From the NCBI GenBank assembly GCA_041619515.1, contig JBFKDW010000001.1, positions 15,129 through 79,128 on the forward strand: a stretch of 64,000 bases of DNA, written 5' to 3'. Of this stretch, positions 3,631 to 32,590 are shown in pieces; within the stretch, counting starts at the first letter, position 1, and every line of letters starts with the position of its first letter. This DNA comes from Acidimicrobiia bacterium (GTDB lineage: Bacteria > Actinomycetota > Acidimicrobiia > Spongiisociales > SHLN01). The translations under genes were made by a program, and so were the position numbers. The notes beneath the pieces are model-generated. The model was not told the DNA's origin. It was given only the letters and a program-made list of their open reading frames with translations, and did not search any database.

Positions 3631-4292
3631 CCGCTCTCGTTCTCTATGGCCGCTCGCAACTCTGCCACGGCATCGACGGGGTCGGGCCGTCCGAAAATGG
3701 CGGTGCCGGCAACGAAGATGTCGGCACCGGCGGCTCTCGCGAGCTTGCCTGTCTCGGGCGTAATGCCCCCGTCGATCTGTATATCGGCGGCAAACCCTTC
3801 AGAATCAATGATTTCCCTCGCATGTTCCACCTTCGTCAGCACGTCCGGGATGAACGCCTGGCCCCCAAATCCGGGATACACCGACATGATCAGCAGGTTG
3901 TCTACGAGGGAGAGGTACGGCTCGACCGCCGTCAGCGGTGTGGGCGGGTTGAGGGTCAGGCCGAATTGGAGGCCTTCGGCCCGGGCGGCCTCGGCCAGGG
4001 TGGTCGGATCGGGAGCCACCTCGATGTGAATCGTCACCATGTCGCATCCGGCCGCCTTGAAGTGAGGAAAGAAGTAGGCGGGGTTGTTCATCATCAAGTG
4101 GGTGTCGAAGAAGAGCCCGGTCGTCGGACGCAGATCTTCGATGACGCTGAGCCCGAAGGAGATATTGGGGACGAAATGACCGTCCATCACGTCGACGTGG
4201 AGCCCATCAACCACCTCCTCCACCCGGGCCACGTCCTCGGCAAGGTGAGCAAAATCTGCAGCCAGCAGTGAGGGGTAGATGCGAGCAGCCAT
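3627..4292 (-). CDS. rpe: Ribulose-phosphate 3-epimerase
   Basis: Contains LHVDVMDGHFVPNISFG...MSVYPGFGGQAF...DGGI, a typical Rpe. Confidence 0.9.
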   Translation of the reverse strand: MAARIYPSLLAADFAHLAEDVARVEEVVDGLHVDVMDGHFVPNISFGLSVIEDLRPTTGLFFDTHLMMNNPAYFFPHFKAAGCDMVTIHIEVAPDPTTLAEAARAEGLQFGLTLNPPTPLTAVEPYLSLVDNLLIMSVYPGFGGQAFIPDVLTKVEHAREIIDSEGFAADIQIDGGITPETGKLARAAGADIFVAGTAIFGRPDPVDAVAELRAAIENESG

Positions 4293-4338
4293 CCCGGGAG
4301 ATTACCGCCGAGCCCGGGTGTGTGGTCGCAGCATGCCG

Positions 4339-5532
4339 TCACGGGCGCACCAGGCTGATGAACATCCCGTCGCTGCCGGTGAGGTGGGGACCGAGCAGCC
4401 AGCCGTTCCCTGCCCGGCGGCCCGGCAAACCCGCAGGAGGTTCCGCCCGTGCGTTGGCCACCACCTCGGTGGTCTCCTCGGGGAACACGGTGCACACGGC
4501 GTACACCACCAGGCCGTCGGGTTTCACCAGCCTGAGTGCTGCGCTCAGGAGCTGCCGTTGGAGGGCTCCGGCCCGGCCCGGGCTGTCGGGCTGCAGCCGG
4601 TGCCGGATCTCGGGCCGCCGCCGCAGGGTCCCCAAGCCGGTGCAGGGGGCATCGAGCAGCACCCGGTCGAAGCTGGCGGTGGCAAATGGAGGGTGCCGGC
4701 CGTCTGCGACCACCAGCGGAATATCGACCCCGAGTCGTTCAAACCGGCGAGCGGCCGTCGCCAGGCGCCGGGCGTGGCGATCGGCCCCGATCACCAGGCC
4801 TCGGCCCTCCAGCTGATCGTGAAGATGCAGCGTCTTGCCACCCGGGGCTGCTGCCAGGTCGAGGATCACCATGCCTGGCCGGGCCCCGACCGCCAGGCCA
4901 ACGGCCACCGACGACGGGTCCATCGGCTCGGAACCCTTGAGATCGGCTCCGGTCTCGACGGCGCCGGCTATTCCCGGGATGGGCCGGCCGGCGCCGGCCC
5001 CCACCGACCGACTACGAGCGGTTCGAGGCGCGGGCTGGAGCGAAGCGGCCAGGAACGCCTCGGCTTCTGGCTGCCCCCACGCGTCGATGAGATTTCGATA
5101 CACCCACGGGTCGACTCCGAGCTCGATGGCCTTCCCGGGAAGCCCGGCAGGAAGCTCTTCCTTCCCGATCTGTACCTTGCGCAGCACCGCATTCACGAAT
5201 CCGGCCGCCCGCTCCCCCGAAGCCTTCCGGGCGGCTTCCACCGCCTCGTGAACGGCCGCATGGGGGGCGCCGCCTCCCAATCGGAGCTCCCAGGCCCCGA
5301 CCCGTAAGAGGTCCAGCACCGCCGGCTCGACATCGGAAAGCGAACGATCGACGGCATCGGCCAAGATTCGATCGATTCGGCCCAGCTGCCGCAACGTGCC
5401 GTAGACGAGCCGGCGCACCAGGGCAGCATCCGGGCCGGTCCCCAGCCCGGCGAGCAGGACGTTGGAATAGGCGCCCGACCTGAGGACCCGCCCGAGGATG
5501 ACCGCCGCCTCCGCTCGCGGTGATCGCTTCAC
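4339..5532 (-). CDS. rsmB: 16S rRNA (cytosine967-C5)-methyltransferase RsmB/Sun
   Basis: N-terminal NusB-like region, SAM-binding VLDLAAAPGGKT, and the DRVLLDAPCTGLGTLRRRPE catalytic motif. The likely GTG start at 5532 overlaps the fmt stop (GTGA). The ORF track extends it to 5568. Confidence 0.8.
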   Translation of the reverse strand: MKRSPRAEAAVILGRVLRSGAYSNVLLAGLGTGPDAALVRRLVYGTLRQLGRIDRILADAVDRSLSDVEPAVLDLLRVGAWELRLGGGAPHAAVHEAVEAARKASGERAAGFVNAVLRKVQIGKEELPAGLPGKAIELGVDPWVYRNLIDAWGQPEAEAFLAASLQPAPRTARSRSVGAGAGRPIPGIAGAVETGADLKGSEPMDPSSVAVGLAVGARPGMVILDLAAAPGGKTLHLHDQLEGRGLVIGADRHARRLATAARRFERLGVDIPLVVADGRHPPFATASFDRVLLDAPCTGLGTLRRRPEIRHRLQPDSPGRAGALQRQLLSAALRLVKPDGLVVYAVCTVFPEETTEVVANARAEPPAGLPGRRAGNGWLLGPHLTGSDGMFISLVRP

Positions 5533-19569: not shown

Positions 19570-20592
19570 TTAGCTGCGTGAGGCGGCTACTGCGCCCAGC
19601 CCGATTCGAACTGCGTCGTCCTCGACCGCAACCACGATCGGACGGCCGATCGCCTCGAGCAGCACCATGTTGAGGCCGTCGGCATCGCGTTTCTTGTCCA
19701 GCCCGATGAGATCAAGGACACGCTCGGCATCGAACTCGATGGAGGTCGGCAGTCCGAGGTGGCGGATGATGGCAGTGACGCGGGCCGACTCGCTGAACCC
19801 GGTCCGGGCGGCGGAAACCGCACCGGCCGCGACCATCCCGATGGCGACCGCCTCGCCGTGGCTGATCCCGGTCGCCACCTCGATGGCGTGTCCGATCGTG
19901 TGGCCGTAATTGAGGATGGCGCGTCGTCCCGCCTCTCGGAAGTCTTCGGCCACCACCGTGGTCTTGACCGCCACCGCCCGATGGACTATCTCCTCCAGGT
20001 CGGCGCCGGGCCCGGCCCGTTCCAAGACCTCCACCAGGGCCGGGTCACCGATCAGCCCGGCCTTGAGCACCTCAGCCATACCCTGGGCGCGCAGCTCCTG
20101 CGGTAGCGCATCGAGCACGTCGAGATCGATCACGATGCGGGCCGGATGGGAGAAGGTGCCCACCAGGTTCTTTCCCTCCACGTTGATGCCCGTCTTGCCC
20201 CCGATGGCGGCATCCACCGCCCCCAGCAGGGTGGTGGGGCAGAACACCGCCTCGATGCCGCGCAAATAGGTGGCCGCCACAAAGCCTCCGAGATCGGTCA
20301 CCGATCCGCCGCCTATTGCCAGCAGGGTGTCGTGCCGGGTGACGCCGAGATTGTTGAGTCGCCGGTAGACGTCCTCTGCCACGGCCAGGGTCTTGGCTGC
20401 CTCACCATCGGGAACCATGATCAGTTCGACCGCCAACCCCTCGGCGCGCAGGCCTTCGGCTACGTTCCCGGCATACTCCCCCGGGGCCTGCTGACTGAGG
20501 AGCGCAACCCGGGCCCGGCCCTCACGGACGGGAAGCATCTCGCCGGCCACGGCCGCCCGCGTGATGACGATGTCCGGCCCGTTCAGATCCAT
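19570..20592 (-). CDS. aroB: 3-dehydroquinate synthase
   Basis: Contains GGGSVTDLGGFVAATYLRGI...GGKTGIN...LNYGHTIGHAIE. Confidence 0.85.
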   Translation of the reverse strand: MDLNGPDIVITRAAVAGEMLPVREGRARVALLSQQAPGEYAGNVAEGLRAEGLAVELIMVPDGEAAKTLAVAEDVYRRLNNLGVTRHDTLLAIGGGSVTDLGGFVAATYLRGIEAVFCPTTLLGAVDAAIGGKTGINVEGKNLVGTFSHPARIVIDLDVLDALPQELRAQGMAEVLKAGLIGDPALVEVLERAGPGADLEEIVHRAVAVKTTVVAEDFREAGRRAILNYGHTIGHAIEVATGISHGEAVAIGMVAAGAVSAARTGFSESARVTAIIRHLGLPTSIEFDAERVLDLIGLDKKRDADGLNMVLLEAIGRPIVVAVEDDAVRIGLGAVAASRS

Positions 20593-21077
20593 GCGCTCAC
20601 CTCTGCGGCAACCTCTGCCGGGGTGCGGCCGTCGGTGCTGACGGTGTGATGCGCAGCCCGCTCGTAGGCATTGCGGCGGCTCTCCAGCAGCTCTGCCAAG
20701 CGGGCTTCCCCGCCGCCCCCGAGAACCGGACGATCCAGTGAGCCGACCACCCGGCCGGCAAGCACGGAGGGCGGTGCCTGCAGCCAGACGACCGTTCCCG
20801 ACCGGCGCATCGCCCGACGGTTGGCTTTGCTGAGGATGGCCCCGCCTCCGGTGGAGACCACCGCTTCGCCGCCCGCAGCCAGCTCCGCGATGATGGTGGT
20901 TTCGATGGCACGAAAGGCACCTTCTCCCTCACGCTCCCACAGGTCGGGGATGCTCGTCCCGAGCCTCGCCTGCACGAGCAGGTCGACGTCGTAGAACGGC
21001 CGACCTTTCAGCACTCCGACCAAACGGCCGACGGTGGTCTTGCCCGATCCCATCATTCCGACCAGCCAGAGATTCAT
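20583..21077 (-). CDS. aroK: Shikimate kinase
   Basis: MNLWLVGMMGSGKTTVGR (P-loop) and a GGG lid. Confidence 0.85.
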   Translation of the reverse strand: MNLWLVGMMGSGKTTVGRLVGVLKGRPFYDVDLLVQARLGTSIPDLWEREGEGAFRAIETTIIAELAAGGEAVVSTGGGAILSKANRRAMRRSGTVVWLQAPPSVLAGRVVGSLDRPVLGGGGEARLAELLESRRNAYERAAHHTVSTDGRTPAEVAAEVSAWI

Positions 21078-21081
21078 CTGT

Positions 21082-22230
21082 TCAGAAGCGGGTCAACCGT
21101 TTGCGGTAATGGTCGACCGCCGCCTGCAGATCGTCGACGGTGTCGCCACCGAACTTGCGCTGAACCTCCTGCGCCAGGACGATGGCCACCATCTGCTCGG
21201 CTACCACGCCTGCGGCGGGCACGGCACATACGTCGGATCTCTCCCGGATCGCCTTTTCCGGCTCCTTCGACGTGACGTCGACCGTCTGGAGGGCGCGCAT
21301 GAGGTTTGAGAGCGGCTTCATGGCCGCCCGCACCCGGATGATTCCGCCCATGCTCATGCCACCTTCGATCCCACCCGCCCGGTTGGTGTCTCGCACGAAC
21401 CCATCCTCGAAGCGGATCTCATCATGTGCCTTCGACCCGCGGCGGGTGGCTCCGGCCAGGCCGTCCCCGATTTCGACGGCCTTGATCGCCTGGATGGACA
21501 TGAGCGCCGCCGCCAGGCGAGCATCCAGCCGGCGGTCGTAGTGGACGTGGCTCCCGAGGCCCGGCATGGCGCCGTGCGCCACAACCTCTACGACACCGCC
21601 GAGCGTGTCGCGATCGGCCTTGGCAGCCTCGATCTCGGCGATCATCGCTTCGGCGCCTGCCGCGTCGAAGGCTCGCACCGGGGACGAATCGATGGCGGGA
21701 AGATCGGCCAGGGTCGGCACCGGGCCATCGGGAGCCCGGGCGGCTCCGATCGCCACGACGTGGCTGACGACCGTGATCTCAACCGCCGCCAGGAGCTCTT
21801 TGGCGAGGCTGCCGGCCACAGTGCGGGCTGCCGTCTCGCGCGCCGAGGCCCGCTCCAGGATGTCACGGGCATCATGCGTGTCGTACTTCTGCATGCCCGC
21901 CAGGTCGGCGTGACCGGGACGGGGGGCGGTCGCCGGGCGCTGTGACTCCCCAGGGAGAGGAGACATCTCACTGCTCCATTTATCCCATTCTGTGTTCCGG
22001 ACTACCACCGCCACCGGCGACCCGAGGGTCTTGCCGAACCGAACGCCGCCGAGAATCTCCAGTTCGTCGCGTTCGAGCTTCATGCGCGGTCCGCGGCCGA
22101 ACCCGAGTCTGCGGCGAGCCAGCTCGGCGGCGATGACCTCGGGGTCGACCCGGAGGCCCGCCGGAAGGCCCTCAACGATGGTGGTGAGGCCCGGGCCGTG
22201 CGACTCGCCGGCGGTCAGAAAACGCAACAT
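21082..22230 (-). CDS. aroC: Chorismate synthase
   Basis: MLRFLTAGESHGPGLTTIVEGLPAGL...GGRSSARETA. Start at the ATG at 22230. ORF 21082..22287 is over-extended. Confidence 0.85.
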   Translation of the reverse strand: MLRFLTAGESHGPGLTTIVEGLPAGLRVDPEVIAAELARRRLGFGRGPRMKLERDELEILGGVRFGKTLGSPVAVVVRNTEWDKWSSEMSPLPGESQRPATAPRPGHADLAGMQKYDTHDARDILERASARETAARTVAGSLAKELLAAVEITVVSHVVAIGAARAPDGPVPTLADLPAIDSSPVRAFDAAGAEAMIAEIEAAKADRDTLGGVVEVVAHGAMPGLGSHVHYDRRLDARLAAALMSIQAIKAVEIGDGLAGATRRGSKAHDEIRFEDGFVRDTNRAGGIEGGMSMGGIIRVRAAMKPLSNLMRALQTVDVTSKEPEKAIRERSDVCAVPAAGVVAEQMVAIVLAQEVQRKFGGDTVDDLQAAVDHYRKRLTRF

Positions 22231-22313
22231 GTAGAGGATGGTAGGCGGGAACCCAGGGCCGGCGTAGCTCCTTGCAGAGGTCTCCAACCACTAGGCGAAC
22301 ACGGCCGGCGAAG

Positions 22314-22856
22314 CTACTTGAGGATCTCTTCACCCACTGCAAGGGCAAACGGGCTGTCGCCGAACAAGAACGTGCCGCCCGTGTCGGTGAGGGTGACGAC
22401 CTGATAGCTGCCTGCAAACGTGTCGCCGACGCCAACCGTGTAGTCGGTTCCGGAGACGCGTACAACCGCTTGTCGCGTGCCGTCGCCGAGTGTGGTGACC
22501 GAGATCAGTGAGACCGGCGTGCCCCCCGGGTCGAAGCCGCCGTTGCCGCCGTCGCCGGTCCCATCGCCTTCCTCAGTGATGAGCGGCCGGAATGGATCGC
22601 GGGGCTGGGAGATCTGAAAGTCGTCGATCAACCGCATGCCGGGCAGGAGGTCGGCCGGCTGCTGGGAGACGATCCCCGCGTCGGCCAGCACCGTCGGCTC
22701 CAGCCGGTTGAGCGAAGATGACCCGATGAGGCTGGGAGCCACGAGCAGCCAGACGGCCGCGACCAGCAGCCCACCGACCAGGATCGAGCCGGTGCTGCTG
22801 GCAATGTGCTCTCGCAGACGAAGCAGCCGGCTGTCACGATATTCGAACTTCATCAT
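22314..22856 (-). CDS. PilP-like pilus assembly protein (N-terminal TM/signal anchor, Gly/Asp-rich linker, RDPF motif, C-terminal beta domain)
   Basis: N-terminal hydrophobic helix ILVGGLLVAAVWLLVAP, the conserved PilP-type motif RDPFRP, and a C-terminal beta-rich segment. The ATG overlaps the pilO stop (TAATG). No secretin follows; aroC is the next gene. Confidence 0.55.
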   Translation of the reverse strand: MMKFEYRDSRLLRLREHIASSTGSILVGGLLVAAVWLLVAPSLIGSSSLNRLEPTVLADAGIVSQQPADLLPGMRLIDDFQISQPRDPFRPLITEEGDGTGDGGNGGFDPGGTPVSLISVTTLGDGTRQAVVRVSGTDYTVGVGDTFAGSYQVVTLTDTGGTFLFGDSPFALAVGEEILK

Positions 22857-23446
22857 TATTCGCCGGCTCCATCGACAGGCTCGCCGGCATTTGCGACCGG
22901 GGCGCCGGCGAGATCGGATAGCGAGAAGGCGGTCGCAGTCATGGATACGGTCAAGATGTTTGTCCCGTCCTCATCCAGAGCCGAATCGATGCTGATCTGA
23001 TCGACCCGGACCAGGCGCTCGAGGTCCTCAATGGCAAAGAGAACGCTCAGTACCTTGAAATACGGTGCTTCGAAACGGATCGTCGTTGATATCTCGAAGA
23101 GGCCCTCCACGACGCTCGGAACGGGCGGGGTGGGGTTCAACGTGAGCAAGTCGACACCGGTGTCGACTGCGATGCTGTTGATGTCCTCGATGAGCGCCGC
23201 TCCGTCGGGGAAGGCGGGGATCGAGTTCTGAATCTCACTCAGCGCCAGGAGAAACTCTCCCTCCTTGGCGGCGAGCGCTTGCAGTTCGTTGCGGCGCGCC
23301 TCGAGAGTGGATTGCTCGATTTGCGCTGCCGCCTCTTGATCCTGGAAATCACTGATCTCGGTCGACTTGCCGGCCATGAACAGGAACCACCACCCGGCCG
23401 TTATCACGAGCACTCCCAGCACTCCGAAGATGAGCCCGCGCCGCAT
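22856..23446 (-). CDS. pilO: Type IV pilus inner-membrane alignment protein PilO
   Basis: Single N-terminal TM (LIFGVLGVLVITAGWWFLF), a coiled-coil region and a PilO-like periplasmic domain. Start at the ATG at 23446, overlapping the pilN stop. ORF 22856..23572 is over-extended. Confidence 0.7.
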   Translation of the reverse strand: MRRGLIFGVLGVLVITAGWWFLFMAGKSTEISDFQDQEAAAQIEQSTLEARRNELQALAAKEGEFLLALSEIQNSIPAFPDGAALIEDINSIAVDTGVDLLTLNPTPPVPSVVEGLFEISTTIRFEAPYFKVLSVLFAIEDLERLVRVDQISIDSALDEDGTNILTVSMTATAFSLSDLAGAPVANAGEPVDGAGE

Positions 23447-24069
23447 CAGGGGATCTCCGGTATTCGTTCGAACAACCTGCCGGACAGTGCGTCGGAGGTC
23501 AGACTGGTCGTCGAGCCAAACGTGACGACATCCTCCTCGGCGATCTGGCTCGCGATGATGCCGCTCGCCCACGTTCCCACCACACCGGGATAGCGGTCCG
23601 AGTCCAGGATCCGAATCCAGGCCGCCACGTCGGGCGGGGCGAATGCCGTGCCCGAAAAGGTGACCTCGCCGATGCTCGTGACGTCACCGGTGGGTGCAAC
23701 CGGGTTGGTGGTACCCGTGTAGTTGGTCACCCACACTCGATCGGGTATCAGCCTCCCGAGATCGTTGAGCAGCCGGCCCCAGCTGACGTCGTTGACGAGG
23801 GCGCTTCCCAGGAGCGTCACGCCGGCCTCGAACTCGTTGCGCACCGCCTCGGCCCCGGCCAGCGAGCTGACCTCCGCCTGGAGCTGCTGGTTGGTGGCCA
23901 GCTGAGCCTGCAGGTCGGCCTCGGCGTCGTTGACCGCCCCCTGTCGCCAGACGGCCACCGCGCCGAGCAGCAAGACATAGAGCACACCGAGGGCGAGCCA
24001 GAGGGCGAGCCGATTCCTCGCCTCGCTCGCTTTCTTCCCCGTCTGGGGTATGAGGTTGATCGTGCGCAT
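23446..24069 (-). CDS. pilN: Type IV pilus assembly protein PilN
   Basis: N-terminal INLIP motif (the PilM-binding INLLP motif), one TM helix and a coiled-coil. The ATG overlaps the pilM stop. Confidence 0.75.
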   Translation of the reverse strand: MRTINLIPQTGKKASEARNRLALWLALGVLYVLLLGAVAVWRQGAVNDAEADLQAQLATNQQLQAEVSSLAGAEAVRNEFEAGVTLLGSALVNDVSWGRLLNDLGRLIPDRVWVTNYTGTTNPVAPTGDVTSIGEVTFSGTAFAPPDVAAWIRILDSDRYPGVVGTWASGIIASQIAEEDVVTFGSTTSLTSDALSGRLFERIPEIP

Positions 24070-25160
24070 CAGCCCCCCCAGAGCGCCAGGCCGACGGGGA
24101 TGGGTATCACCGGCTGCATCGCGGAGATCTCAGCCTCGGACAGCTTGCCGGTGTTCAAGCCTTCGATGACCCGGGCGGGCTCGATCCGCGCACCGAGGGT
24201 GTCGCCGAGCCGGTTGGCGAGGTGCGGCAGCCGGGCTCCGTTGCCGGATACGATGATACGGCTGAGCTCGGCGTCATCGGACTGGCCCAGGTAGAAATTC
24301 ACCGAGCCGCGTACTTCGTCGATGAATCTCTCCGCCTGGGCATCGAGGATGGTTCGAGCTCGGTCCTCCAGCGCCGACACCGACGCGTCTCCGTCGTCGG
24401 CTGTGGGGGTGATGGCGGCGGCTTCCCCCCCAACCGGGGTCAGTCCCACCTGGCGCTTGAGGTCCTCGGCCTCTTCCCAGGTGACGTCGAGGCCGTCGAC
24501 CAGTGCGGCAGTGAAATCCTCTCCACCCTGCTGGAGCAAGCGGACAAAGCGCGGCTCCCCGGCGCGTACCAGCAACACCTGGGAGACCCCCGAGCCGATG
24601 TCGACGACCGCCGCCACGCTACCGATATCGAAATCACCGTAGAACAGGGCGCGGATGAGCCCGAAGGCTTGCAGGTCGAGGGCAATCGGCGTGATCCCGG
24701 CAGCATTGACCGCTGCGAGCAACGTTTCCACCATGTCCCGCTGCGCGGCCACGACGAGGATCGAGAGCATCGGCTCACCGTCGGGGGTGGTGAACTCCTC
24801 GATGGGGACGAAGTCCAGGAAGGTCTCCTCGACGGGGATTGGGATGTACTCCTGGACCTGGAACGGGAGTGCCTCGACCAGCTCGAGCTCACTCATGCGG
24901 GGAACGTCAACCTGGCGGACGATCACGCGTTGGTTGGCGAGGCCGAGCACGATGCGGCGCTTCGGCAGCTTGGTCTCCTTCCAGAGGCGGGAGATGGCGG
25001 CGGTCACGGCTTCGGGATCGACGATCTCGCCGGCCACCACCGCCCCGCGCTCGATGTCGACCTGGCCGATCCGGCGGATAACCGGGGGCTGTTTCCCGGT
25101 GTCGAGGGCGACGGCGCGCACACCGGTTGCGCCGATGTCCAGCCCCACGTTGACCGCCAT
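24069..25160 (-). CDS. pilM: Type IV pilus assembly ATPase-like protein PilM (actin/FtsA fold)
   Basis: MAVNVGLDIGATGVRAVAL... and an FtsA/PilM-like fold through to the C-terminus. An SD sequence GGAG lies 6 nt upstream. Confidence 0.85.
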   Translation of the reverse strand: MAVNVGLDIGATGVRAVALDTGKQPPVIRRIGQVDIERGAVVAGEIVDPEAVTAAISRLWKETKLPKRRIVLGLANQRVIVRQVDVPRMSELELVEALPFQVQEYIPIPVEETFLDFVPIEEFTTPDGEPMLSILVVAAQRDMVETLLAAVNAAGITPIALDLQAFGLIRALFYGDFDIGSVAAVVDIGSGVSQVLLVRAGEPRFVRLLQQGGEDFTAALVDGLDVTWEEAEDLKRQVGLTPVGGEAAAITPTADDGDASVSALEDRARTILDAQAERFIDEVRGSVNFYLGQSDDAELSRIIVSGNGARLPHLANRLGDTLGARIEPARVIEGLNTGKLSEAEISAMQPVIPIPVGLALWGG

Positions 25161-25193
25161 TGTTACTCCGCCTCAAGACACGAGCGCAGTGCC

Positions 25194-25207
25194 TTGTAAT
25201 TACAAGA
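25194..25207. promoter_or_regulatory. Perfect 14-bp AT-rich palindrome CTTGTAATTACAAG in the pilM upstream region (candidate operator)
   Basis: Seen in the sequence inside the only conspicuously AT-rich 100-bp stretch in the window (25161-25261). It lies about 35-47 bp upstream of the pilM ATG. A direct repeat ATTCGGG-N16-ATTCGGG lies 5 bp further upstream. Confidence 0.3.
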
Positions 25208-25261
25208 ATGTCATTCGGGAGATTAACAAACGATTCGGGCAGCGCAAGTCATAGCGGCGGC

Positions 25262-26038
25262 TCACCGGCCGAGATACCAGTCGACGAGCTGCTGCCCGAT
25301 CACCAGGGCCAGGTACGAGCCAAAGATCATGGCGGGTCCGAACGGGATCTTCGCCTTGCGGGTGGCTCTGCCGGCCAGCAGAAGGGCAATCGCGACCACC
25401 CCGCCGATGGCGATTCCGAGGGCAACGCCGGCGCCGAGCACCTCCCACGATCGATAGGTCAGGAAGAGCCCCAGGAAGAAGGCGAGCTTTACGTCACCCA
25501 GACCAAAGCCGCCGCGGGCGACGAGGGCAAGGGCGAGGAAGATCGCGAAATATAGGCTTGCCCCGGCGAGCGCCCGGCCAAAGGAAGCGAGATCTCCATC
25601 AGCGATGGCCGCCACGAGCAAGAGCGCAGCACCGACCAGCGTCGACGGATAGAGGATGCGATTCGGCAGCCGATGGACATCCAGGTCGGTGAGAACCAGC
25701 GCAAGGCCGACTCCCGCAAACCACAGGTAGGCCGGGAGCTCGGGCTCGATCCCAATAACGAGGACCGCAGACGCGAAGAGGATGGCGGCGCCCACCTCGA
25801 CGATCGGGTAGCGGACGCTGATATGGCCTCCACAGTCCCGGCAACGACCCCGCAGCAACACCCACGACAGCACGGGAATGTTGTCTCGCGGCCGGATGGC
25901 TGCCCGGCACACCGGGCAGGCGGACGGTGGTGAGACGACCGAGTGGCCGGCCGGGACCCGGTAGGCAACCACGTTGATGAACGAGCCGAAGATGAGGCCG
26001 AACAGTGCGGCCACGGCTACCGCAGGAAGGGCATCCAT
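25262..26038 (-). CDS. pilD: Prepilin peptidase (A24 family) PilD
   Basis: N-terminal zinc tetracysteine motif CPVC...CRDC, a polytopic membrane protein with catalytic Asp motifs (DLDVHRLP, GLGDVKL). Confidence 0.85.
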   Translation of the reverse strand: MDALPAVAVAALFGLIFGSFINVVAYRVPAGHSVVSPPSACPVCRAAIRPRDNIPVLSWVLLRGRCRDCGGHISVRYPIVEVGAAILFASAVLVIGIEPELPAYLWFAGVGLALVLTDLDVHRLPNRILYPSTLVGAALLLVAAIADGDLASFGRALAGASLYFAIFLALALVARGGFGLGDVKLAFFLGLFLTYRSWEVLGAGVALGIAIGGVVAIALLLAGRATRKAKIPFGPAMIFGSYLALVIGQQLVDWYLGR

Positions 26039-26066
26039 GAGGCCTCGACCCTAGTGACCGGGGGCG

Positions 26067-26543
26067 TTACCAGCCTGAAGCCGACCAGGTCCCGACGCCC
26101 GGGGGGCCGGCGGCGCTGCACGCACCGAACGGGTTCGCCGAGTGGCGGCCGAATTGGGTGCCACCGGCCGAGTTCTCCCAGATGGCGAGGAACTCACCGC
26201 GCGGGGTCCTGGCAACGAGACACACCACCTGAGCGGTGGGATCGATGGTGACGGCGACGGGGTCGAAGGTGTTGACGGCCGGGCTGGCACCGGTGACGTT
26301 GAACAAGCTCGGCTCGATCGCCGACAGCAGATCGAGATCGTCCGTGAACTGGGCTGCCCCGCCGGCGTAGTACGCCTTCTCCGTGGTGAGAGCGTTCCTG
26401 AGGTGGCTCTTGGCGGCCGAATCCTCCGCCTCCTTGCGTTGACCGAGGAAGGTCGGGATCGCAATGGCGATGAGGATCGCCACGATGAGGACGACGATCA
26501 TCAATTCGATGAGGGTGAATCCTCGGTCGTCTCTGCTCCACAT
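26067..26543 (-). CDS. pilA: Type IV major pilin paralog (class III signal peptide RG|FTLIELMIVV)
   Basis: MWSRDDRGFTLIELMIVVLIVAILIAIAIPTF..., a C-terminal Cys pair and ...SASGW. An SD sequence GAGAAGG lies upstream of the ATG at 26543. The rest of ORF 26067..26864 is an extension. Confidence 0.8.
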   Translation of the reverse strand: MWSRDDRGFTLIELMIVVLIVAILIAIAIPTFLGQRKEAEDSAAKSHLRNALTTEKAYYAGGAAQFTDDLDLLSAIEPSLFNVTGASPAVNTFDPVAVTIDPTAQVVCLVARTPRGEFLAIWENSAGGTQFGRHSANPFGACSAAGPPGVGTWSASGW

Positions 26544-26629
26544 GGCGGCGCCTTCTCGTTGACTGTACGTCGGGTTTTCGGCGCGGACCGACCGGCTCTT
26601 GAGCGATATGCGTCGCGAATCCGATGGCT

Positions 26630-26661
26630 CCCAACAACAGGAAACGGGCCCCGAAGGGCCC
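26630..26661 (-). terminator. Intrinsic terminator after the first pilin gene: GGGCCC-UUCG-GGGCCC stem-loop followed by GUUUCCUGUUGUUGG
   Basis: Seen in the sequence on the minus-strand RNA about 30 nt after the pilA1 stop. It has a GC stem, a UUCG tetraloop and a U-rich tail. Confidence 0.55.
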
Positions 26662-26688
26662 GAATCCGGTTTGCTTATCGAGCTGGGT

Positions 26689-27153
26689 TTACCAGCCGCC
26701 TGGCGTCCACGGAGCGCCGGGCTGGGCGACCGGGCAAGGCGCCGTAGTCGGAGCCGCCGCAGCTTTGTAGTAGACGGTTCCGGCAGTGGTCCCATCCCAG
26801 ACGGCGAAGTAGTCGCCGCCATCGCTCTGCTGCACGAGGCAGACAGAGACGCCACCAGCACCAATGGTCACCGTGACCGGGTCCGCACCGGTGCCGAACA
26901 GGTTCGGCTCGATGGCGGCAAGGTCGGCGGTGGTCGCCGTGAAGACCTGGTTCACGGAGAAGTAGGCCTTCTCGGTCGCCAGGGCGTTACGGACGTTGCT
27001 CTTGGCAGCGCTGTCCTGTGCGTTCTTCCGCTGACCCAGGAAGGTGGGGATGGCAATGGCGACCAGAATGGCAATAATCAGCACCACGACCATCAGCTCG
27101 ATGAGTGTGAAGCCCTCGTCCTTGTTGAGACGGGACCGCATCGCTTTGAGCAT
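26689..27153 (-). CDS. pilA: Type IV major pilin (class III signal peptide EG|FTLIELMVVV)
   Basis: MLKAMRSRLNKDEGFTLIELMVVVLIIAILVAIAIPTF..., a C-terminal Cys pair and ...TPGGW. A strong SD sequence AAGGAG lies 8 nt upstream of the ATG at 27153. Confidence 0.85.
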   Translation of the reverse strand: MLKAMRSRLNKDEGFTLIELMVVVLIIAILVAIAIPTFLGQRKNAQDSAAKSNVRNALATEKAYFSVNQVFTATTADLAAIEPNLFGTGADPVTVTIGAGGVSVCLVQQSDGGDYFAVWDGTTAGTVYYKAAAAPTTAPCPVAQPGAPWTPGGW

Positions 27154-27333
27154 CTGATGTTCTCCTTGCGAGCATCTACGGCCGAGCCTTTACCCGACCT
27201 TCGTACCCATGAGCTATCGACACGCTGGGTGACGAGTTGAGGCTTTTCCGTGGCTATTACCGGGCGCACCGACGCACTAGCGCGTCGAGCGGTGCTGCCT
27301 CGGTGGGGGCTGATGCGGCAGGTGCGGGAGCAC

Positions 27334-28554
27334 CTAGCCGACGACGTTGACCAGGTTGAACATCGGCAGGTAGAGAGCCACGAGGATGCCGCCGACCGTC
27401 AATCCCATGAAGGCGATCAGGAGCGGCTCGAGCAAGCTGGTGAGGGCGTCGACGGTGTCGTTGACCTCCTGGTCGTAGAACGACGCCACCTTCTCCAGCA
27501 TGGCGTCGACGGCGCCGGTTTCCTCGCCCACTGCGATCATCTGCACGACCATGGACGGAAACACCTTGTGCTTGGCGAGGGGCACGGCGAGCGAGTCGCC
27601 ATCCTTCACCGACTTGGCGACGTCGGCGACTGCGTCGGAAACGATCGCATTGCCGGCCACGTCCCGAACGATCTCCATCGCCTGCAGGATGGGAACTCCC
27701 GTCCGCAGCAGGACGCCGAGCGTCGAGGAAAAGCGGCTGATTGCCGTCTTGTGAACCACTCCCCCGAACACCGGCATCTTCAGCTTGGCGGCGTCCCACA
27801 CGTGCCGTCCGGCGGTCGTGTTGATCCACCGACGGAACCCCCAGACCGACGCCCCCATGAGGGGAAACACGATGAACCAGAAAGACTTCAAGAGGTCTGA
27901 GCCGCCGATGAGGATCTTCGTCGGCACCGGCAGCTCGCCCCCCGCCCCGGCGTAGAGATCCTGAAAGATCGGCACCACGAAGACGAGCATGGCGAGGACC
28001 ACGAGAGCAACCATCGAGAGCACGACGACCGGGTAGGCCATCGCCGACTTGATCTTGCTGCGTAGCGCCACCTGGTTCTCGAGGGCGGCGGCCAGCCGCA
28101 GCAGCGTGTCGTCGAGGACACCACCGGCTTCCCCGGCGCGCACCATCGACGTGTAAAGCTGGCTGAATGCTTTGGGGTGCTTCTCCAGAGCCGCCGAGAG
28201 CCCGACGCCCCGCTCGACGTCGCGCCTCACCTCTCCGATTATCCGGGCCAGCGCTTTGGACTCGGTCTGCTCCTCGAGCACCGAGAGCGACCGCAGCAGC
28301 GAGAGTCCGGCGTTGATCATGGTGGCGAACTGGCGGCTGAAGACCGCCACCTCCTTCGCCTTGACCCGGTCGCTCAGGCCGGGGATGTTGATCTCCGTCT
28401 TCAGGCCGCTCGTCTTGACCTCGTCGACCGCCAGAGGGACTGCCCCTCGTTCCCGCAGGGCCTTGACGACCGCATCCCGGGAGGAACCTTCGATCTGCCC
28501 CTCGAGGACCTTGCCGCTCTTGTCCCGGGCGCGATAGTCGAACATGGTGGCCAT
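27334..28554 (-). CDS. pilC: Type IV pilus platform protein PilC (GspF family)
   Basis: Two T2SS-F repeats and three TM segments. MATMFDYRARDKSGK...FSRQFATMINAGLSL... Confidence 0.9.
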   Translation of the reverse strand: MATMFDYRARDKSGKVLEGQIEGSSRDAVVKALRERGAVPLAVDEVKTSGLKTEINIPGLSDRVKAKEVAVFSRQFATMINAGLSLLRSLSVLEEQTESKALARIIGEVRRDVERGVGLSAALEKHPKAFSQLYTSMVRAGEAGGVLDDTLLRLAAALENQVALRSKIKSAMAYPVVVLSMVALVVLAMLVFVVPIFQDLYAGAGGELPVPTKILIGGSDLLKSFWFIVFPLMGASVWGFRRWINTTAGRHVWDAAKLKMPVFGGVVHKTAISRFSSTLGVLLRTGVPILQAMEIVRDVAGNAIVSDAVADVAKSVKDGDSLAVPLAKHKVFPSMVVQMIAVGEETGAVDAMLEKVASFYDQEVNDTVDALTSLLEPLLIAFMGLTVGGILVALYLPMFNLVNVVG

Positions 28555-30087
28555 TTATCCCCCTCCCAGCAGGTGTTTGAGACCCTCGGCGTCTGCACAA
28601 CGTTCGAATGCGAGCTCGCGGGTTATCTTCCCGCGCTGGACGAGATCCGCCAGAGCCTGGTCCATCGTCTGCATCCCGTGCTGGGATCCGGCCTGCATGG
28701 CGGAGGGGATCTGGTGCACCTTTCCGTCGCGGATCTGGTTGCGAATGGCGGCGGTGGCGATCATGACCTCGACGGCCACTATTCGGCCCTTCCCATCCTG
28801 GGTGGGGAGCAGCTGTTGGCTGACAACGGCCTGCAGGGAGCTTCCCAGCTGGACTCGCACCTGCGATTGCTGATGTGAGGGGAACACGTCGATGACACGG
28901 TCGATGGATTGCGGGGCGCTCTGGGTGTGCAGCGTTCCGAAGACGAGGTGGCCCGTTTCGGCCGCCGTCAGCGCCGCACTGATCGTCTCGAGGTCGCGCA
29001 TCTCCCCGACCAGGATGACATCGGGGTCCTGGCGTAGGACGTGCTTGAGCGCGTGATTGAAGCTGAAGGTATCCGTTCCGACCTCGCGTTGGTTGACCAC
29101 GGCCTTCTTGTGCTTGTGGAGGAACTCGATTGGATCCTCGATCGTCATGATGTGGACCGCTCGCTCCTCGTTGATGCGGTTGACGATGGCGGCGAGCGTG
29201 GTGCTCTTACCGGACCCGGTGGGGCCCGTCACCAGCACCAGTCCTCGATGCAGATTCGCCAGCGAGCCGACCACGGGAGGCATGCCGAGTTTCTCCGGGG
29301 TGACGATCTCGTTCGGGATCGCCCGGAGCACAGCACCCACCGAGTCACGCTGAAAGAACACATTCACCCGGAAGCGGCCGTGGCCCGGCACCGGGTGCGA
29401 GGCATCGAGCTCACGATTTTCCTCCAGGCGCTGACGCTGGTCGGCGGTGAGGATGCCGTAGATCATCCGGCGCAGCTCGGCCGGCATCATGATGCCGAAG
29501 TCCTCCAACGGCTGGAGACGGCCGTTGACACGGATCTGGGGCTCCGTGCCGGCCGTGAGGTGGAGGTCGGACCCGGCGTTGTCCATGAGGATCACGAGCA
29601 GATCGTTGAGATGGATCTCCTGCGAGGTCTCCACCCGGGGAGCATCGTTCTCGCTGAGCGTGAAGTAGTCGCCGAGGATGCGGTCGATGGAGCGCTTGGA
29701 CGCCAGCCCCAGCGATACCGGGCTGCCGCACGCGGTCTCGAGGGTCTCCCGCAAGTTGGCGGTGAAAGGGTCCGCGACAGCCACGACCACCCTCTCCTCC
29801 TCGAGCGCAACGGGCACCGCCACCATGCGGCGCGCGGTGTCGGCGTCGATGCGGTCGAGGGCATCCGGCTGGATGATGGTCTGCTCGAGGTTGATGTAGT
29901 CGATGCCGAGTTGCTCGGCTACCACCATCAGCAAGTCTGCGTCGCTCACGTGACCAGACGTCACGAGCGTCTTGGCGAGGGGAATGCCGCCCCGGCTCTC
30001 CTCGATGAGCAGGTCTTCGAGCACATCCCGGCTCAGGAGGCGCCGGTTCACGAGCGCCTCGCCGAGCTGTCGGCTTACTCGGCTCAT
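28555..30087 (-). CDS. pilT: PilT-family retraction ATPase with an extra ~140-aa N-terminal GspE-N1/MshEN-like domain
   Basis: Core: Walker A GPTGSGKST, Asp box, His box and the C-terminal AIRNQIRDGK (PilT AIRNLIRE motif), with no tetracysteine. The N-terminal extension LGEALVNRRLLSRDVLEDLLIEE ... LAKTLVTSGHVSDADLLMVVAEQ resembles the tandem 24-residue MshEN motifs. The ATG at 30087 overlaps the pilB stop (ATGA). Confidence 0.8.
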   Translation of the reverse strand: MSRVSRQLGEALVNRRLLSRDVLEDLLIEESRGGIPLAKTLVTSGHVSDADLLMVVAEQLGIDYINLEQTIIQPDALDRIDADTARRMVAVPVALEEERVVVAVADPFTANLRETLETACGSPVSLGLASKRSIDRILGDYFTLSENDAPRVETSQEIHLNDLLVILMDNAGSDLHLTAGTEPQIRVNGRLQPLEDFGIMMPAELRRMIYGILTADQRQRLEENRELDASHPVPGHGRFRVNVFFQRDSVGAVLRAIPNEIVTPEKLGMPPVVGSLANLHRGLVLVTGPTGSGKSTTLAAIVNRINEERAVHIMTIEDPIEFLHKHKKAVVNQREVGTDTFSFNHALKHVLRQDPDVILVGEMRDLETISAALTAAETGHLVFGTLHTQSAPQSIDRVIDVFPSHQQSQVRVQLGSSLQAVVSQQLLPTQDGKGRIVAVEVMIATAAIRNQIRDGKVHQIPSAMQAGSQHGMQTMDQALADLVQRGKITRELAFERCADAEGLKHLLGGG

Positions 30088-31748
30088 GCCACCACCCGCA
30101 TGATTTCCTCGAGAGACGTCATGCCGGAGGCCACCTTTTCCAAGCCGTCCTGCCACAGGGTCGTCATACCCTCTTCGATGGCAACGGCCTGGATCTCGTC
30201 GGAGGGGCGCCGCTCGACAGACATCCGCTGAATGTCCTCACTGACGAGCAGAACCTCGTGAAGCGCCAGGCGACCGCGATAACCGGTGTTGGCGCACGAC
30301 TGACACCCGACCGCTTCGAAGACATGCTTGGGCACGTCGAGGCCGGCAGCCTCGAACTTGTCGGCAGCGGGCGCCGCCTCCTGGCGGCACTTGTCACACA
30401 ATCGGCGCGCCAGCCGCTGAGCCAGGATGGCGTCTATCGACGATGCCACCAGATACGGCTCCACGTCCATTTCGATGAGGCGGCCGATGCTGGAAGACGA
30501 GTCATTCGTGTGCAGGGTGGAGAGCACGAGGTGGCCGGTGAGGGCGGCCTCGATCGCGATCTGCGCCGTCTCCCGGTCGCGAATCTCACCGATGAGCGCG
30601 ATGTCGGGGTCGGCGCGCAATATCGACCGTAGCGCCGAGGCAAACGTCAGGCCGGCTTTGCGGTTGACCTGGACCTGGGTGATCCCGGCCAGCCGATACT
30701 CGACCGGGTCTTCCGTCGTGATGATGTTCACTTCCGGCCGGTTGAGCACGTTGAGCGTGGCGTACAGCGTCGTGGACTTCCCAGAACCGGTCGGGCCGGT
30801 CACGAGAATGGCTCCGTAGGGCTTGGTGTAGGACGACTCGAAGCGGGCAAGGTTGTGAGCGCTGAAGCCGAGGTCGGTCAGCTCCAGCAAGATGGAGCTT
30901 CGATCCAGGATCCGAAGCACCACCTTCTCACCGTAGACCGAGGGCAGCGTCGCGACACGCAGGTCGACCTGGCGGCCCTGGACTTTGAGGCTGATACGGC
31001 CATCCTGTGGGATCCGTCGCTCGGCGATATTGATGTCCGCCATGATCTTGAGGCGGCTCACCATGGCGTTGGTTATCGAGCGGGGGGTGGTCATCGCCTC
31101 GTGCAGAACGCCGTCGATCCGGAAGCGGACCCGCAGGTCCTTCTCCCCCGGCTCGATATGGATGTCCGAGGCACGTTCGTTCATTGCCCGCGTGATGATC
31201 GTGTTCACCAGCTTGACGACCGGTGCTTCGTCGACCGAGGCTTCGATGGCGCTGAGGTCCTCGACTTCCGCTCCCTCGTCGAGCAGATCACCGAATTCCG
31301 AGACGGCATCATCGAACTGAGCCATCCTCGAAAGAGCATCCATGACCTCAGTGCGCGTGGCTACCTTGGGGCGGACATCCATGCCGGTGATGGCCCGGAT
31401 ATCGTCGATCGCCAGCACGTTGGCCGGGTCTGCCATTGCGACGATCAGGCTGCCGTCTTCGGAGAATCCGATGGGGATGGCGGCGTAGCGGCGGGCGAGG
31501 GCTTCCGGTACGAGAGCACTCGCCGAGGGATCGATGGTGACCTCGTCGAGGGCGACGAACTCCAGCCCGATATGGCGGGCAAGGGTCTTGACGAGATCGG
31601 TTTCCTTGACGAAACCCTCTTCCACGAGGATCCGCCCGAGAGGCATTCCGCTTTCGGCTTGAATCTCGGTCGCACGATCGAGATCGGCCCTGCTCAGCAG
31701 GCCTTCCTGGAGCAGCATCGTGCCGAGATGCCGCGCTTCGGTAGTCAC
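30084..31748 (-). CDS. pilB: Type IV pilus assembly (extension) ATPase PilB with N-terminal MshEN-type domain
   Basis: GspE-family core with Walker A GPTGSGKST and tetracysteine zinc motif (CDKC...CQSC). The N-terminus HLGTMLLQEGLLSRADLDRATEIQ and LGRILVEEGFVKETDLVKTLARHIG matches the tandem MshEN consensus RLGxxLLxxGLLxxxxLxxxLxxQ. Confidence 0.9.
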   Translation of the reverse strand: MTTEARHLGTMLLQEGLLSRADLDRATEIQAESGMPLGRILVEEGFVKETDLVKTLARHIGLEFVALDEVTIDPSASALVPEALARRYAAIPIGFSEDGSLIVAMADPANVLAIDDIRAITGMDVRPKVATRTEVMDALSRMAQFDDAVSEFGDLLDEGAEVEDLSAIEASVDEAPVVKLVNTIITRAMNERASDIHIEPGEKDLRVRFRIDGVLHEAMTTPRSITNAMVSRLKIMADINIAERRIPQDGRISLKVQGRQVDLRVATLPSVYGEKVVLRILDRSSILLELTDLGFSAHNLARFESSYTKPYGAILVTGPTGSGKSTTLYATLNVLNRPEVNIITTEDPVEYRLAGITQVQVNRKAGLTFASALRSILRADPDIALIGEIRDRETAQIAIEAALTGHLVLSTLHTNDSSSSIGRLIEMDVEPYLVASSIDAILAQRLARRLCDKCRQEAAPAADKFEAAGLDVPKHVFEAVGCQSCANTGYRGRLALHEVLLVSEDIQRMSVERRPSDEIQAVAIEEGMTTLWQDGLEKVASGMTSLEEIMRVVA

Positions 31749-31801
31749 GTTGTCTCCTTGCCTCTATCCCGGTGGGCTTTCGGCAGTGAATGGGTGAGGC
31801 T

Positions 31802-32590
31802 TTAGAGATTCGACCCCGGCGAGTGGTCACGCGCAACGGCCTCTCGCATCGCCGAAAGAGAGGGGGTCACGCCGGTCCAGAGCTCGAAGGAAAGGGCCGC
31901 CTGATGCAGCAGCATTTCGATCCCTTCCACCACGGGTATGCCGAGGCCGGCTGCATGCTCGACTGCCGGAGTTGGGACCGGACCGTAAGGCATATCGAAG
32001 AGTCCGCCGGCCGATTCGAGGAGGCGATCGGGAAGGTGCCGGGCGTGCATCCCGAGCGGGGTGGCGTTGACCACCACTGCCCCATCGATCGGCTCACCCC
32101 AGCGGGCTACCGTGGCTTCGACACCGGTCCTGGTGATCAGCGCCGCGGCTGCCTCGGGGCGTCGCGCGGCCACCATGAGTGGTCGGCCCTCGAGCGCCAC
32201 CATGGCAGCGGCAGCGGCGCCGCCGGCGCCCAGGAGGAGCACCGCACCGTCGGGGAGGCCGTCCCAGGCCCGTCTGATCGCTTCGACATCGGTCGACTCT
32301 CCAATAACGACGCCGTCGGACACGATGAGGGTGTTGACGCTGGCGGCCCGATCGGCCTCAGGCCCGACGACGTCGACCAGGCGGGAGGCCAGCGCCTTGT
32401 GGGGCATGGTGACGTTGGCGCCATCGAGCCCACCGCGCCGCAGGTCGGCGACGGCGGCCTCCATCCCGGCCGCATCGGTTCGGCGTGCCACGTACGATCC
32501 ATCGACGCCGGCCGCTCGCAGCGCGGCGGTGTGCAGCCGTGGCGACAGGCTGTGTGACACCGGGTCACCGAGCAGCGCGAGCTTCAGCAT
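31802..32590 (-). CDS. aroE: Shikimate dehydrogenase
   Basis: Contains LGDPVSHSLSPRLH...NVTMPHK...LLLGAGGAAAAA, an AroE. Confidence 0.85.
   Translation of the reverse strand: MLKLALLGDPVSHSLSPRLHTAALRAAGVDGSYVARRTDAAGMEAAVADLRRGGLDGANVTMPHKALASRLVDVVGPEADRAASVNTLIVSDGVVIGESTDVEAIRRAWDGLPDGAVLLLGAGGAAAAAMVALEGRPLMVAARRPEAAAALITRTGVEATVARWGEPIDGAVVVNATPLGMHARHLPDRLLESAGGLFDMPYGPVPTPAVEHAAGLGIPVVEGIEMLLHQAALSFELWTGVTPSLSAMREAVARDHSPGSNL

Follow-up and report, generated by a model that had tools for sequence, protein, structure and literature searches.

Can a type IV pilus retraction ATPase carry the N-terminal domain of an extension ATPase, and what would such a domain do on it? The question is raised by a pilT gene in a 64-kb stretch of contig JBFKDW010000001.1 from an Acidimicrobiia bacterium (this whole stretch is called the window below). 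The GC content of the host genome is 66.6%, and the nearest named database relatives are metagenome-assembled genomes (MAGs) of Acidimicrobiia. The predicted product has 510 residues. An initial annotation of the window described it as a PilT preceded by an MshEN-like domain and proposed that this domain could sense a nucleotide second messenger and so gate retraction. Our analysis supports the architecture and disfavours the sensor for this particular protein. The explanation that we prefer, and hold to be somewhat better than an even bet, is that the domain serves as a ligand-independent docking or coupling module on a bona fide PilT.

An N-terminal MshEN domain on a PilT core

Residues 157-510 can be assigned by sequence to a canonical PilT/PilU retraction ATPase. 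With 480.6 bits the match to the PilT/PilU model TIGR01420 exceeds the cut-off (319.1), and residues 160-499 cover model positions 2-340 of 343. The solved PilTs of G. metallireducens (6OJX), P. aeruginosa (3JVV) and A. aeolicus (2EWV) align end to end with residues 157-510 at 413, 356 and 378 bits, the first of them being the best solved relative. They show the same boxes, the same AIRNxIRxxK helix and no tetracysteine, and in PilT systems, too, pilB and pilC are the operon neighbours. The Walker A motif GPTGSGKS is found at residue 288, the Asp box EDPIE at residue 317, the Walker B motif DPDVILVGEMRD at residue 354 and the His box TGHLVFGTLHT at residue 378. The C-terminal PilT-specific helix AIRNQIRDGK (residues 447-456) aligns with AIRNLIREDK of 6ojx. 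Only two cysteines are present in the whole protein (C120 and C497), so the Zn-binding tetracysteine is missing. The canonical core described in the initial annotation is thus found in every element. We also considered whether the gene encodes a second PilB and rejected this identity, since the 510-residue protein reaches only 179.1 bits on the PilB equivalog TIGR02538 (cut-off 675.65), has no tetracysteine and carries the PilT landmarks.

Solved and textbook PilTs begin at the N2 domain (N2D) and have about 345-390 residues, whereas the protein studied here adds a 143-residue domain and a linker in front. The initial annotation had assigned about 140 N-terminal residues (29667-30087, which are codons 1-140) to an MshEN-like domain, and both profiles and fold prediction bear this out. 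Pfam MshEN (PF05157) matches residues 60-142 with 50.6 bits (53.5 for the domain alone, E 2e-13, cut-off 23.1), and the NCBIfam PilB and NfrB models span residues 5-159. A profile of 31 family N-domains matches the solved PilF GSPII domains, the PilB N1 domains (N1Ds), XpsE-N and MshE 5htl, the last with an E value of 1.5e-20. The AlphaFold2 (AF2) model of the domain, computed from the 31-sequence alignment, has a predicted local distance difference test score (pLDDT) of 88.9. It consists of a four-helix bundle, with helices at residues 3-14, 20-33, 37-43 and 49-60, followed by an alpha/beta subdomain whose strands and helices exceed a pLDDT of 90. In this second subdomain P74, A90, P92, A103, V104, D106 and P107 are near-invariant in the family alignment. 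A Foldseek search of the PDB with the model returns at probability 1.0 solely GSPII/MshEN domains, including 5htl, 8pdk, 9g1w and 2d27. The top matches are PilF GSPII-A (9g1w, E 1.8e-10) and MshE with bound c-di-GMP (cyclic diguanylate; 5htl, template modelling (TM) scores 0.65/0.73), and PilF GSPII-B, XpsE-N (2d27/2d28) and the Xanthomonas PilB-N/PilZ complex are found further down. For the last of these, the PilB N-domain with PilZ and FimX (7LKM), the TM score is 0.62-0.65 at an identity of just 14-15%; neither a PilZ nor a FimX gene is seen within the window. On this combined evidence from profiles and models, residues 1-143 are assigned as a genuine MshEN/GSPII domain, referred to here as N1D.

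The N1Ds of Vibrio cholerae MshE (5HTL), PilB and GspE share with it the two-subdomain fold, the 24+5+24 motif register and the position before the T2SSE ATPase. They differ in that they sit on a PilB/GspE-class motor, and in that the ligand motif of the 510-residue PilT fails and scores below the cut-off (see below). In the full-length AF2 model (mean pLDDT 87.2) the N1D is followed by a disordered linker and then by the N2D and C-terminal domain (CTD) of PilT. The linker has a pLDDT below 50 at residues 144-154 in the full-length model and at residues 148-154 in the domain model. Across the family the linker differs in both length and sequence, and its alignment columns are rich in gaps.

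The long form of the protein is the real product, made as one polypeptide. Its ATG (30087-30085) overlaps the TGA of pilB (30086-30084) in an ATGA, the classical arrangement for translational coupling, and we assign the pilB/pilT junction to this type. A purine-rich stretch, GGGTGGTGG, lies immediately upstream of it. The overlap had already been taken to favour the long form, and the same overlap is found at the orthologous locus L082. An internal Met just before the PilT core, mentioned in the initial annotation as a possible alternative start, does not exist. The stretch between residues 88 and 168 is free of Met, and M168 itself is already part of the core's first helix. Against L082, the ratio of nonsynonymous to synonymous substitution rates (dN/dS) is 0.23 in the N-domain and 0.05 in the core, with a dS of about 0.8, and the identities are 74% and 92%. 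The value of 0.23 indicates purifying selection on the N-domain. The MshEN + T2SSE architecture is common to more than 100 clusters at the 90% identity level, with lengths of 494-551 residues and identities of 55-88%.

Short orthologues of 343-353 residues were considered as a form without N1D and rejected as artefacts. One of them, P0021, is a 93%-identical orthologue that NCBI calls as a 353-residue product, which leaves a 468-nt 'gap' after pilB. In L082 (2530-4062, GCA_029862705.1) an intact, in-frame N1D is encoded in this gap and the ATGA overlap recurs, so the start of P0021 is miscalled in the public record. Another, P0022, starts at a contig end. The ATGA overlap, the missing Met, the dN/dS, the wide family and the artefactual nature of the short forms together argue for the long form. 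The NCBI call for P0021 is what speaks for the opposite reading, which holds that the start is misassigned, that PilT is translated without the first 150 codons and that the product has about 350 residues. Given the in-frame N1D at that very locus, the lack of a Met in the relevant interval, the coding-type constraint on the N-domain and its confident fold, we regard this reading as hardly credible.

Among non-PilT domains, the N1D of the co-resident PilB is nearest to the PilT N1D, with 33% identity and 118.9 bits on the hidden Markov model (HMM) of the PilT N-domains, on which solved PilBs reach at most 90.6 bits. This fits an origin of the PilT N1D from an actinobacterial pilB 5' region. 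With pilB directly upstream, the domain might then be only a functionless relic of recombination or duplication with the 5' end of its neighbour, tolerated on PilT; its decayed ligand motif (see below) and its faster evolution relative to the core would agree with that. Such a relic is nevertheless quite improbable in our judgement. The N-domain is under purifying selection, and over 100 clusters, with identities as low as 55%, keep it intact, as does Egicoccus; the AF2 fold of the domain is confident, and invariant residues of both surface and core are spread over both subdomains.

State of the c-di-GMP motif

Two degenerate copies of the 24-residue c-di-GMP motif had been reported for the N-domain, and this observation stands. 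Both strings given earlier are present, LGEALVNRRLLSRDVLEDLLIEE at residues 8-30 and LAKTLVTSGHVSDADLLMVVAEQ at residues 37-59. With position 1 at Q7 and P36, motif I occupies residues 7-30 and motif II residues 36-59, separated by a 5-residue spacer (residues 31-35). The loss of one Gly in each copy, which the initial annotation had pointed out, is confirmed as R16 in motif I and A38 in motif II, although the departures go further than that. When compared with the relaxed c-di-GMP search motif of Wang et al. 2016, [RKPN]hGxxhhxx[GAS]hhxxxxhxxxhxx[QNKRYWST] (PMC5013675), motif I fails at Q7, R16 and E30 (positions 1, 10 and 24) and motif II at A38 and H46 (positions 3 and 11). On NF053729, the curated model of the c-di-GMP motif, the protein reaches 32.9 bits (33.8 for the domain alone) and stays below the cut-off of 38. 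The adjacent PilB passes the same model with its own N1D at 56.9 bits.

These departures are fixed across the family, for which 60 sequences were analysed. Position 10 of motif I is Arg in 43, His in 12 and Lys in 5 and never Gly (0/60). At position 24 of the same motif Glu is found in 47 sequences, Ala in 12 and Ser in 1, and Gln in none (0/60). Position 3 of motif II is occupied by Ala (45), Pro (6), Ser (3), Val (2), Asp (2) or Thr (2), again never by Gly (0/60). In binding domains, the backbone NH of the Gly at position 3 forms a hydrogen bond with N7 of guanine. The drift among Ala, Pro, Ser, Val, Asp and Thr at this position of motif II argues against a maintained ligand contact.

Published mutants give a measure of what such changes cost. 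The MshEN variants G11L and G40I are not stabilised by c-di-GMP, as would be expected if they bind it poorly or not at all (PMC5013675). In a resurrected PilF GSPII-A, changing G41 back to the native A41 costs about 10-fold in binding, and native PilF GSPII-A, which has A41, shows no binding of c-di-GMP at all (PMC12002112). In PilF GSPII-B, binding falls 77-158-fold with each Q->E substitution at position 24 and is lost in the double mutant (PMC11731258). The domain closest to ours in this respect is PilF GSPII-A of Thermus thermophilus (9G1W), which has the same Gly to Ala change at position 3 of motif II, its A41 corresponding to A38 here. Non-binding has been shown for PilF GSPII-A (PMC12002112) and is predicted for the N1D of the 510-residue PilT; the former differs in that it sits on an extension ATPase, beside two binding GSPII domains. 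As judged from the motif, the canonical c-di-GMP site has decayed, above all in half-site II, and the N1D of the 510-residue PilT is probably not a c-di-GMP sensor. The sensor that had been proposed is therefore not upheld for this protein, in view of the sub-cut-off score, the five motif failures and the departures fixed throughout the family.

A proposed docking role and its alternatives

The best explanation of the whole, which we favour with some reserve, is that N1D acts as a ligand-independent docking or coupling module. In an actinobacterial lineage, comprising Acidimicrobiia and also Egicoccus of the Nitriliruptoria, PilT has gained an N1D otherwise typical of PilB, GspE and MshE. The 510-residue PilT is made as a single polypeptide, translationally coupled to pilB within the pil operon, and its N1D is a folded, selectively maintained module on a flexible tether of roughly 13 residues. 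The module may serve as a 'landing pad' by which the PilT hexamer is docked or coupled to the pilus platform (PilM/PilN and PilC) on its cytoplasmic face. The contact would be of the type known for the N1D of GspE/XpsE with GspL/XpsL and for the PilF GSPII domains with PilMN. Through their homologous handles, PilB and PilT could compete for, or alternate on, one machine.

This proposal draws on the purifying selection on both subdomains, on the flexible tether and on the likeness to the non-binding PilF GSPII-A, as well as on the XpsE/EpsE and PilF precedents and the presence of pilM, pilN, pilO and pilC in the same operon. A 'landing pad' for partner proteins has been suggested by the authors of the PilF GSPII-A study (PMC12002112). 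XpsE/EpsE bind to the PilM-like XpsL/EpsL through their N-termini, and PilMN stimulation depends on GSPII-C of PilF (PMC6325625). The GspE/XpsE N1-GspL/XpsL and PilF-PilMN contacts thus resemble the tethering of a hexameric ATPase to a PilM-like platform protein that we propose (PMC6325625), with the difference that all of these cases concern secretion or extension ATPases. We infer both the binding partner (PilM/N/O or PilC) and the effect on retraction.

Several observations weigh against a ligand-independent docking role. Canonical PilTs dock without any N1D, and a short PilT of 376 residues is found in at least one cluster of Acidimicrobiaceae (L039). In T. thermophilus no single GSPII domain is needed for PilMN binding, GSPII-C being required solely for stimulation (PMC6325625). 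Half-site I is largely kept, with L8 in 56/60, G9 in 60/60, L23 in 56/60 and L27 in 53/60 sequences and a near-invariant R6 preceding it, and this conservation could reflect ligand binding and not the fold alone. In other GSPII domains a single Q->E or G->A change weakens binding and does not abolish it (PMC11731258, PMC12002112), the single Q->E mutants still binding at 0.46-0.95 uM (PMC11731258).

The last two of these points are also what one would cite for an N1D that still senses a nucleotide second messenger, either c-di-GMP weakly or another dinucleotide through an altered site. One possibility is that the half-sites I of two protomers sandwich one ligand. Both the MshEN fold and the 24+5+24 register have been kept, which would suit a sensor, and the substitutions K, L and P at position 1 are tolerated in binding GSPII domains (PMC11731258). 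Moreover, PilTs of other lineages (P0226, P0250, P0142 and P0244) pass the c-di-GMP model, and two of them adjoin GGDEF or HD-GYP-type genes. We nonetheless consider retained sensing unlikely for the 510-residue PilT. NF053729 stays below its cut-off here and is unlisted (E > 1e-5) for P0122, P0160, P0130 and the Egicoccus PilT, and five relaxed-motif failures occur within one domain. A position 3 of motif II that is never Gly in 60 members is hard to square with the contact to guanine N7, and the MshEN G40I variant without stabilisation, the roughly 10-fold cost of the A41 equivalent and the non-binding PilF GSPII-A point the same way. A regular-expression search of the window, which is weak evidence and not genome-wide, gave nothing convincing for GGDEF, EAL-type or PilZ signatures. 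The further step, in which binding gates the recruitment or the ATPase activity of PilT and so places retraction under direct second-messenger control, is doubtful to the same degree.

A different role would follow if N1D altered the motor itself. PilT could then be bifunctional or assist extension, by engaging the platform in an extension-competent manner or by forming mixed assemblies with PilB. N1D is otherwise a hallmark of extension ATPases (PMC11656802), PilT can promote extension in the V. cholerae MSHA system and in Francisella (PMC9815625, PMC11656802), and the PilT N1D is most similar to that of the co-resident PilB. However, a complete and separate PilB with its tetracysteine is encoded immediately upstream, and the PilT core, which falls far under the PilB model, has every PilT-specific feature, the AIRNxIRxxK helix among them. 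An extension-assisting PilT thus seems improbable to us, and the docking module remains the reading that we prefer.

Operon, distribution and meaning

The genes around pilT form a complete monoderm-type type IVa pilus operon (Table 1). From Pfam and NCBIfam matches, the gene order is alaS-ruvX-mltG-aroE, then pilB-pilT-pilC-pilA-pilA-pilD-pilM-pilN-pilO-orf180, and then aroC-aroK-aroB-efp-nusB. PilM, PilN and PilO, identified by their Pfam matches, make up the inner-membrane platform. The pilB product is closest to TIGR02538, with a score below the 675.65 cut-off of that equivalog, and its tetracysteine is formed by C451, C454, C482 and C485. Two tandem pilin genes with N-methylation motifs are found between pilC and pilD; for the second, the listed open reading frame (ORF; 26067-26864) begins far upstream of the likely start. 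The gene directly after pilO, orf180, may encode a lineage-specific pilus component. The pil cluster from pilB to orf180 (22314-31748) sits inside a shikimate-pathway operon, the whole region being 19570-32590.

Table 1. Positions in the window of the pilT gene, its parts and the surrounding genes.
Feature	Position	Strand	Remarks
pilT, long form	28555-30087	minus	510 codons + stop; N1D (MshEN/GSPII), linker, PilT N2D, C-terminal ATPase domain
MshEN_N four-helix subdomain, residues 7-59	29911-30069	minus	degenerate motifs I and II
Motif I	29998-30069	minus
Motif II	29911-29982	minus
MshEN_C alpha/beta subdomain, residues 60-143	29659-29910	minus	conserved VAVADPF strand-loop; Pfam PF05157
Flexible interdomain linker, residues 144-156	29620-29658	minus	about 13 residues; AF2, alignment
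PilT core, residues 157-510	28558-29619	minus	TIGR01420 on residues 160-499
Walker A	29203-29226	minus
PilT-specific C-terminal helix	28720-28749	minus
ATGA, pilB stop/pilT start overlap	30084-30087	minus
pilB, extension ATPase	30084-31748	minus	554 aa; closest model TIGR02538, 624.2 bits
pilC, platform protein	27334-28554	minus	Pfam T2SSF 218.9 bits; start abuts pilT stop
Pilin genes, tandem	26689-27153 and about 26067-26540	minus	N-methylation motifs
pilM	24069-25160	minus	Pfam PilM_2 139 bits
pilN	23446-24069	minus	Pfam PilN 26.6 bits
pilO	22856-23572	minus	Pfam PilO 41.8 bits
orf180	22314-22856	minus	180 aa; abuts pilO; no Pfam match
aroE	31802-32590		flanks the pilB side of the pil cluster
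aroC	21082-22287		flanks the pilO/orf180 side
aroK	20583-21077		flanks the pilO/orf180 side
aroB	19570-20592		flanks the pilO/orf180 side

The occurrence of MshEN on a PilT contradicts published generalisations, as the initial annotation had assumed. PilT and PilU are said to 'lack the T2SSE_N domain' (PMC4624772), and the review criterion for PilT is N2D + CTD without N1D/GSPII, while the 510-residue PilT has an N1D in front of both. In the literature searched, including the supplements of Wang 2016, no description of a PilT with N1D was found, the coverage of this search being incomplete. The architecture is thus a combination of two known domains which the literature says do not co-occur, common in Acidimicrobiia and present elsewhere.

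Its frequency was estimated from a HMMER survey of 1.84 billion cluster representatives with the PilT core, from which the 150 best-scoring representatives were counted. The N-terminal extension is shorter than 30 residues in 66 of them and at least 80 residues long in 76. An MshEN-like N-domain is present in 18/150, one of which (P0244) has two, and 14/150 are tandem PilT-PilT proteins. PilT cores are therefore modular. Within the large Acidimicrobiia family the MshEN-PilT architecture is the norm, so that the view of it as unusual holds with respect to the reviews, and the rarity that this implied does not. In Egicoccus sp. of the Nitriliruptoria (L002), an MshEN-PilT lies between pilB and pilC; it is the sole one among the matches listed in the contig profile scan, the rest of those examined being ordinary PilTs. 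L074 was rejected as a further case, its apparent N-terminal coverage having come from the adjacent pilB. A different arrangement is seen in L039, an Acidimicrobiaceae MAG, where a 321-residue ORF (540-1505) with MshEN as its sole Pfam match (65.5 bits) lies upstream of pilB, and the PilT of the cluster (3917-5047) is the short one; these look like the same parts, unfused.

MshEN-PilTs of unrelated genomes (39-68% GC) have PilT cores of 403.6-490.5 bits, above the family cut-off. Unlike the 510-residue protein, several of them pass NF053729, namely P0226 (63.4 bits), P0250 (56.5), P0142 (45.8), P0129 (48.7), P0171 (38.1) and P0244 (100.2). For the actinobacterial-type P0122, P0160 and P0130 and for Egicoccus, the model is unlisted at E <= 1e-5. 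P0142 adjoins a GAF/HD-GYP-type gene and a sigma70-GGDEF gene (L084, 4539-7629 and 14-1327), and P0250 adjoins a GAF-GGDEF gene (L085, 4023-7596); no GGDEF or HD-GYP-type genes adjoin P0226 and P0244. A search with the N-domain of P0226 alone gave only 3 matches. Since motif-competent PilTs exist and GGDEF or HD-GYP genes adjoin some of them, the class probably includes sensors, and second-messenger sensing by the MshEN-PilT architecture as a class is plausible. P0142 and P0250 are candidates for a retraction controlled directly by c-di-GMP, and the 510-residue PilT belongs to a subfamily with a decayed site.

Other additions to PilT cores were also seen. Single-chain tandem PilT-PilT fusions of about 713-766 residues are very abundant, especially in Myxococcota, and topped a profile search; examples are P0284 (Chondromyces crocatus, 752 residues), P0287 (Polyangiales), P0357 (Kiritimatiellaeota) and P0394 (Lentisphaerae). 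DUF4388, HEAT repeats and a WD40 propeller occur as other N-terminal modules (P0235, P0202 and P0224). Many predicted PilTs have Pro/Ala-rich low-complexity extensions of 80-600 residues; these may be disordered or may stem from faulty gene calls. P0166 (539 residues, on a 2.6-kb contig) combines an apparent PilB-type N1D and N2D with a PilT-type CTD and may be a natural chimera or an assembly artefact.

The presence of N1D as the feature that divides extension motors (PilB, GspE, MshE) from retraction motors (PilT, PilU) is thus not general. Papers and reviews have argued from the absence of N1D that PilT is no direct target of c-di-GMP, and the family of PilTs with N1D breaks this rule. The family is easily missed or misannotated, since its Pfam architecture (MshEN + T2SSE) is identical to that of PilB and in at least one NCBI record the gene is cut short. 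If the sensor reading were true, retraction would be gated by a nucleotide on the motor itself, which is undescribed for any type IV pilus; the PilTs of other lineages with an apparently competent MshEN offer concrete candidates for such direct c-di-GMP control. For the function of N1D in general, the family is a natural experiment. Should a retraction motor keep an N1D that no longer binds ligand, then the core job of this domain is probably docking or coupling to PilM/N/C, and nothing specific to extension.

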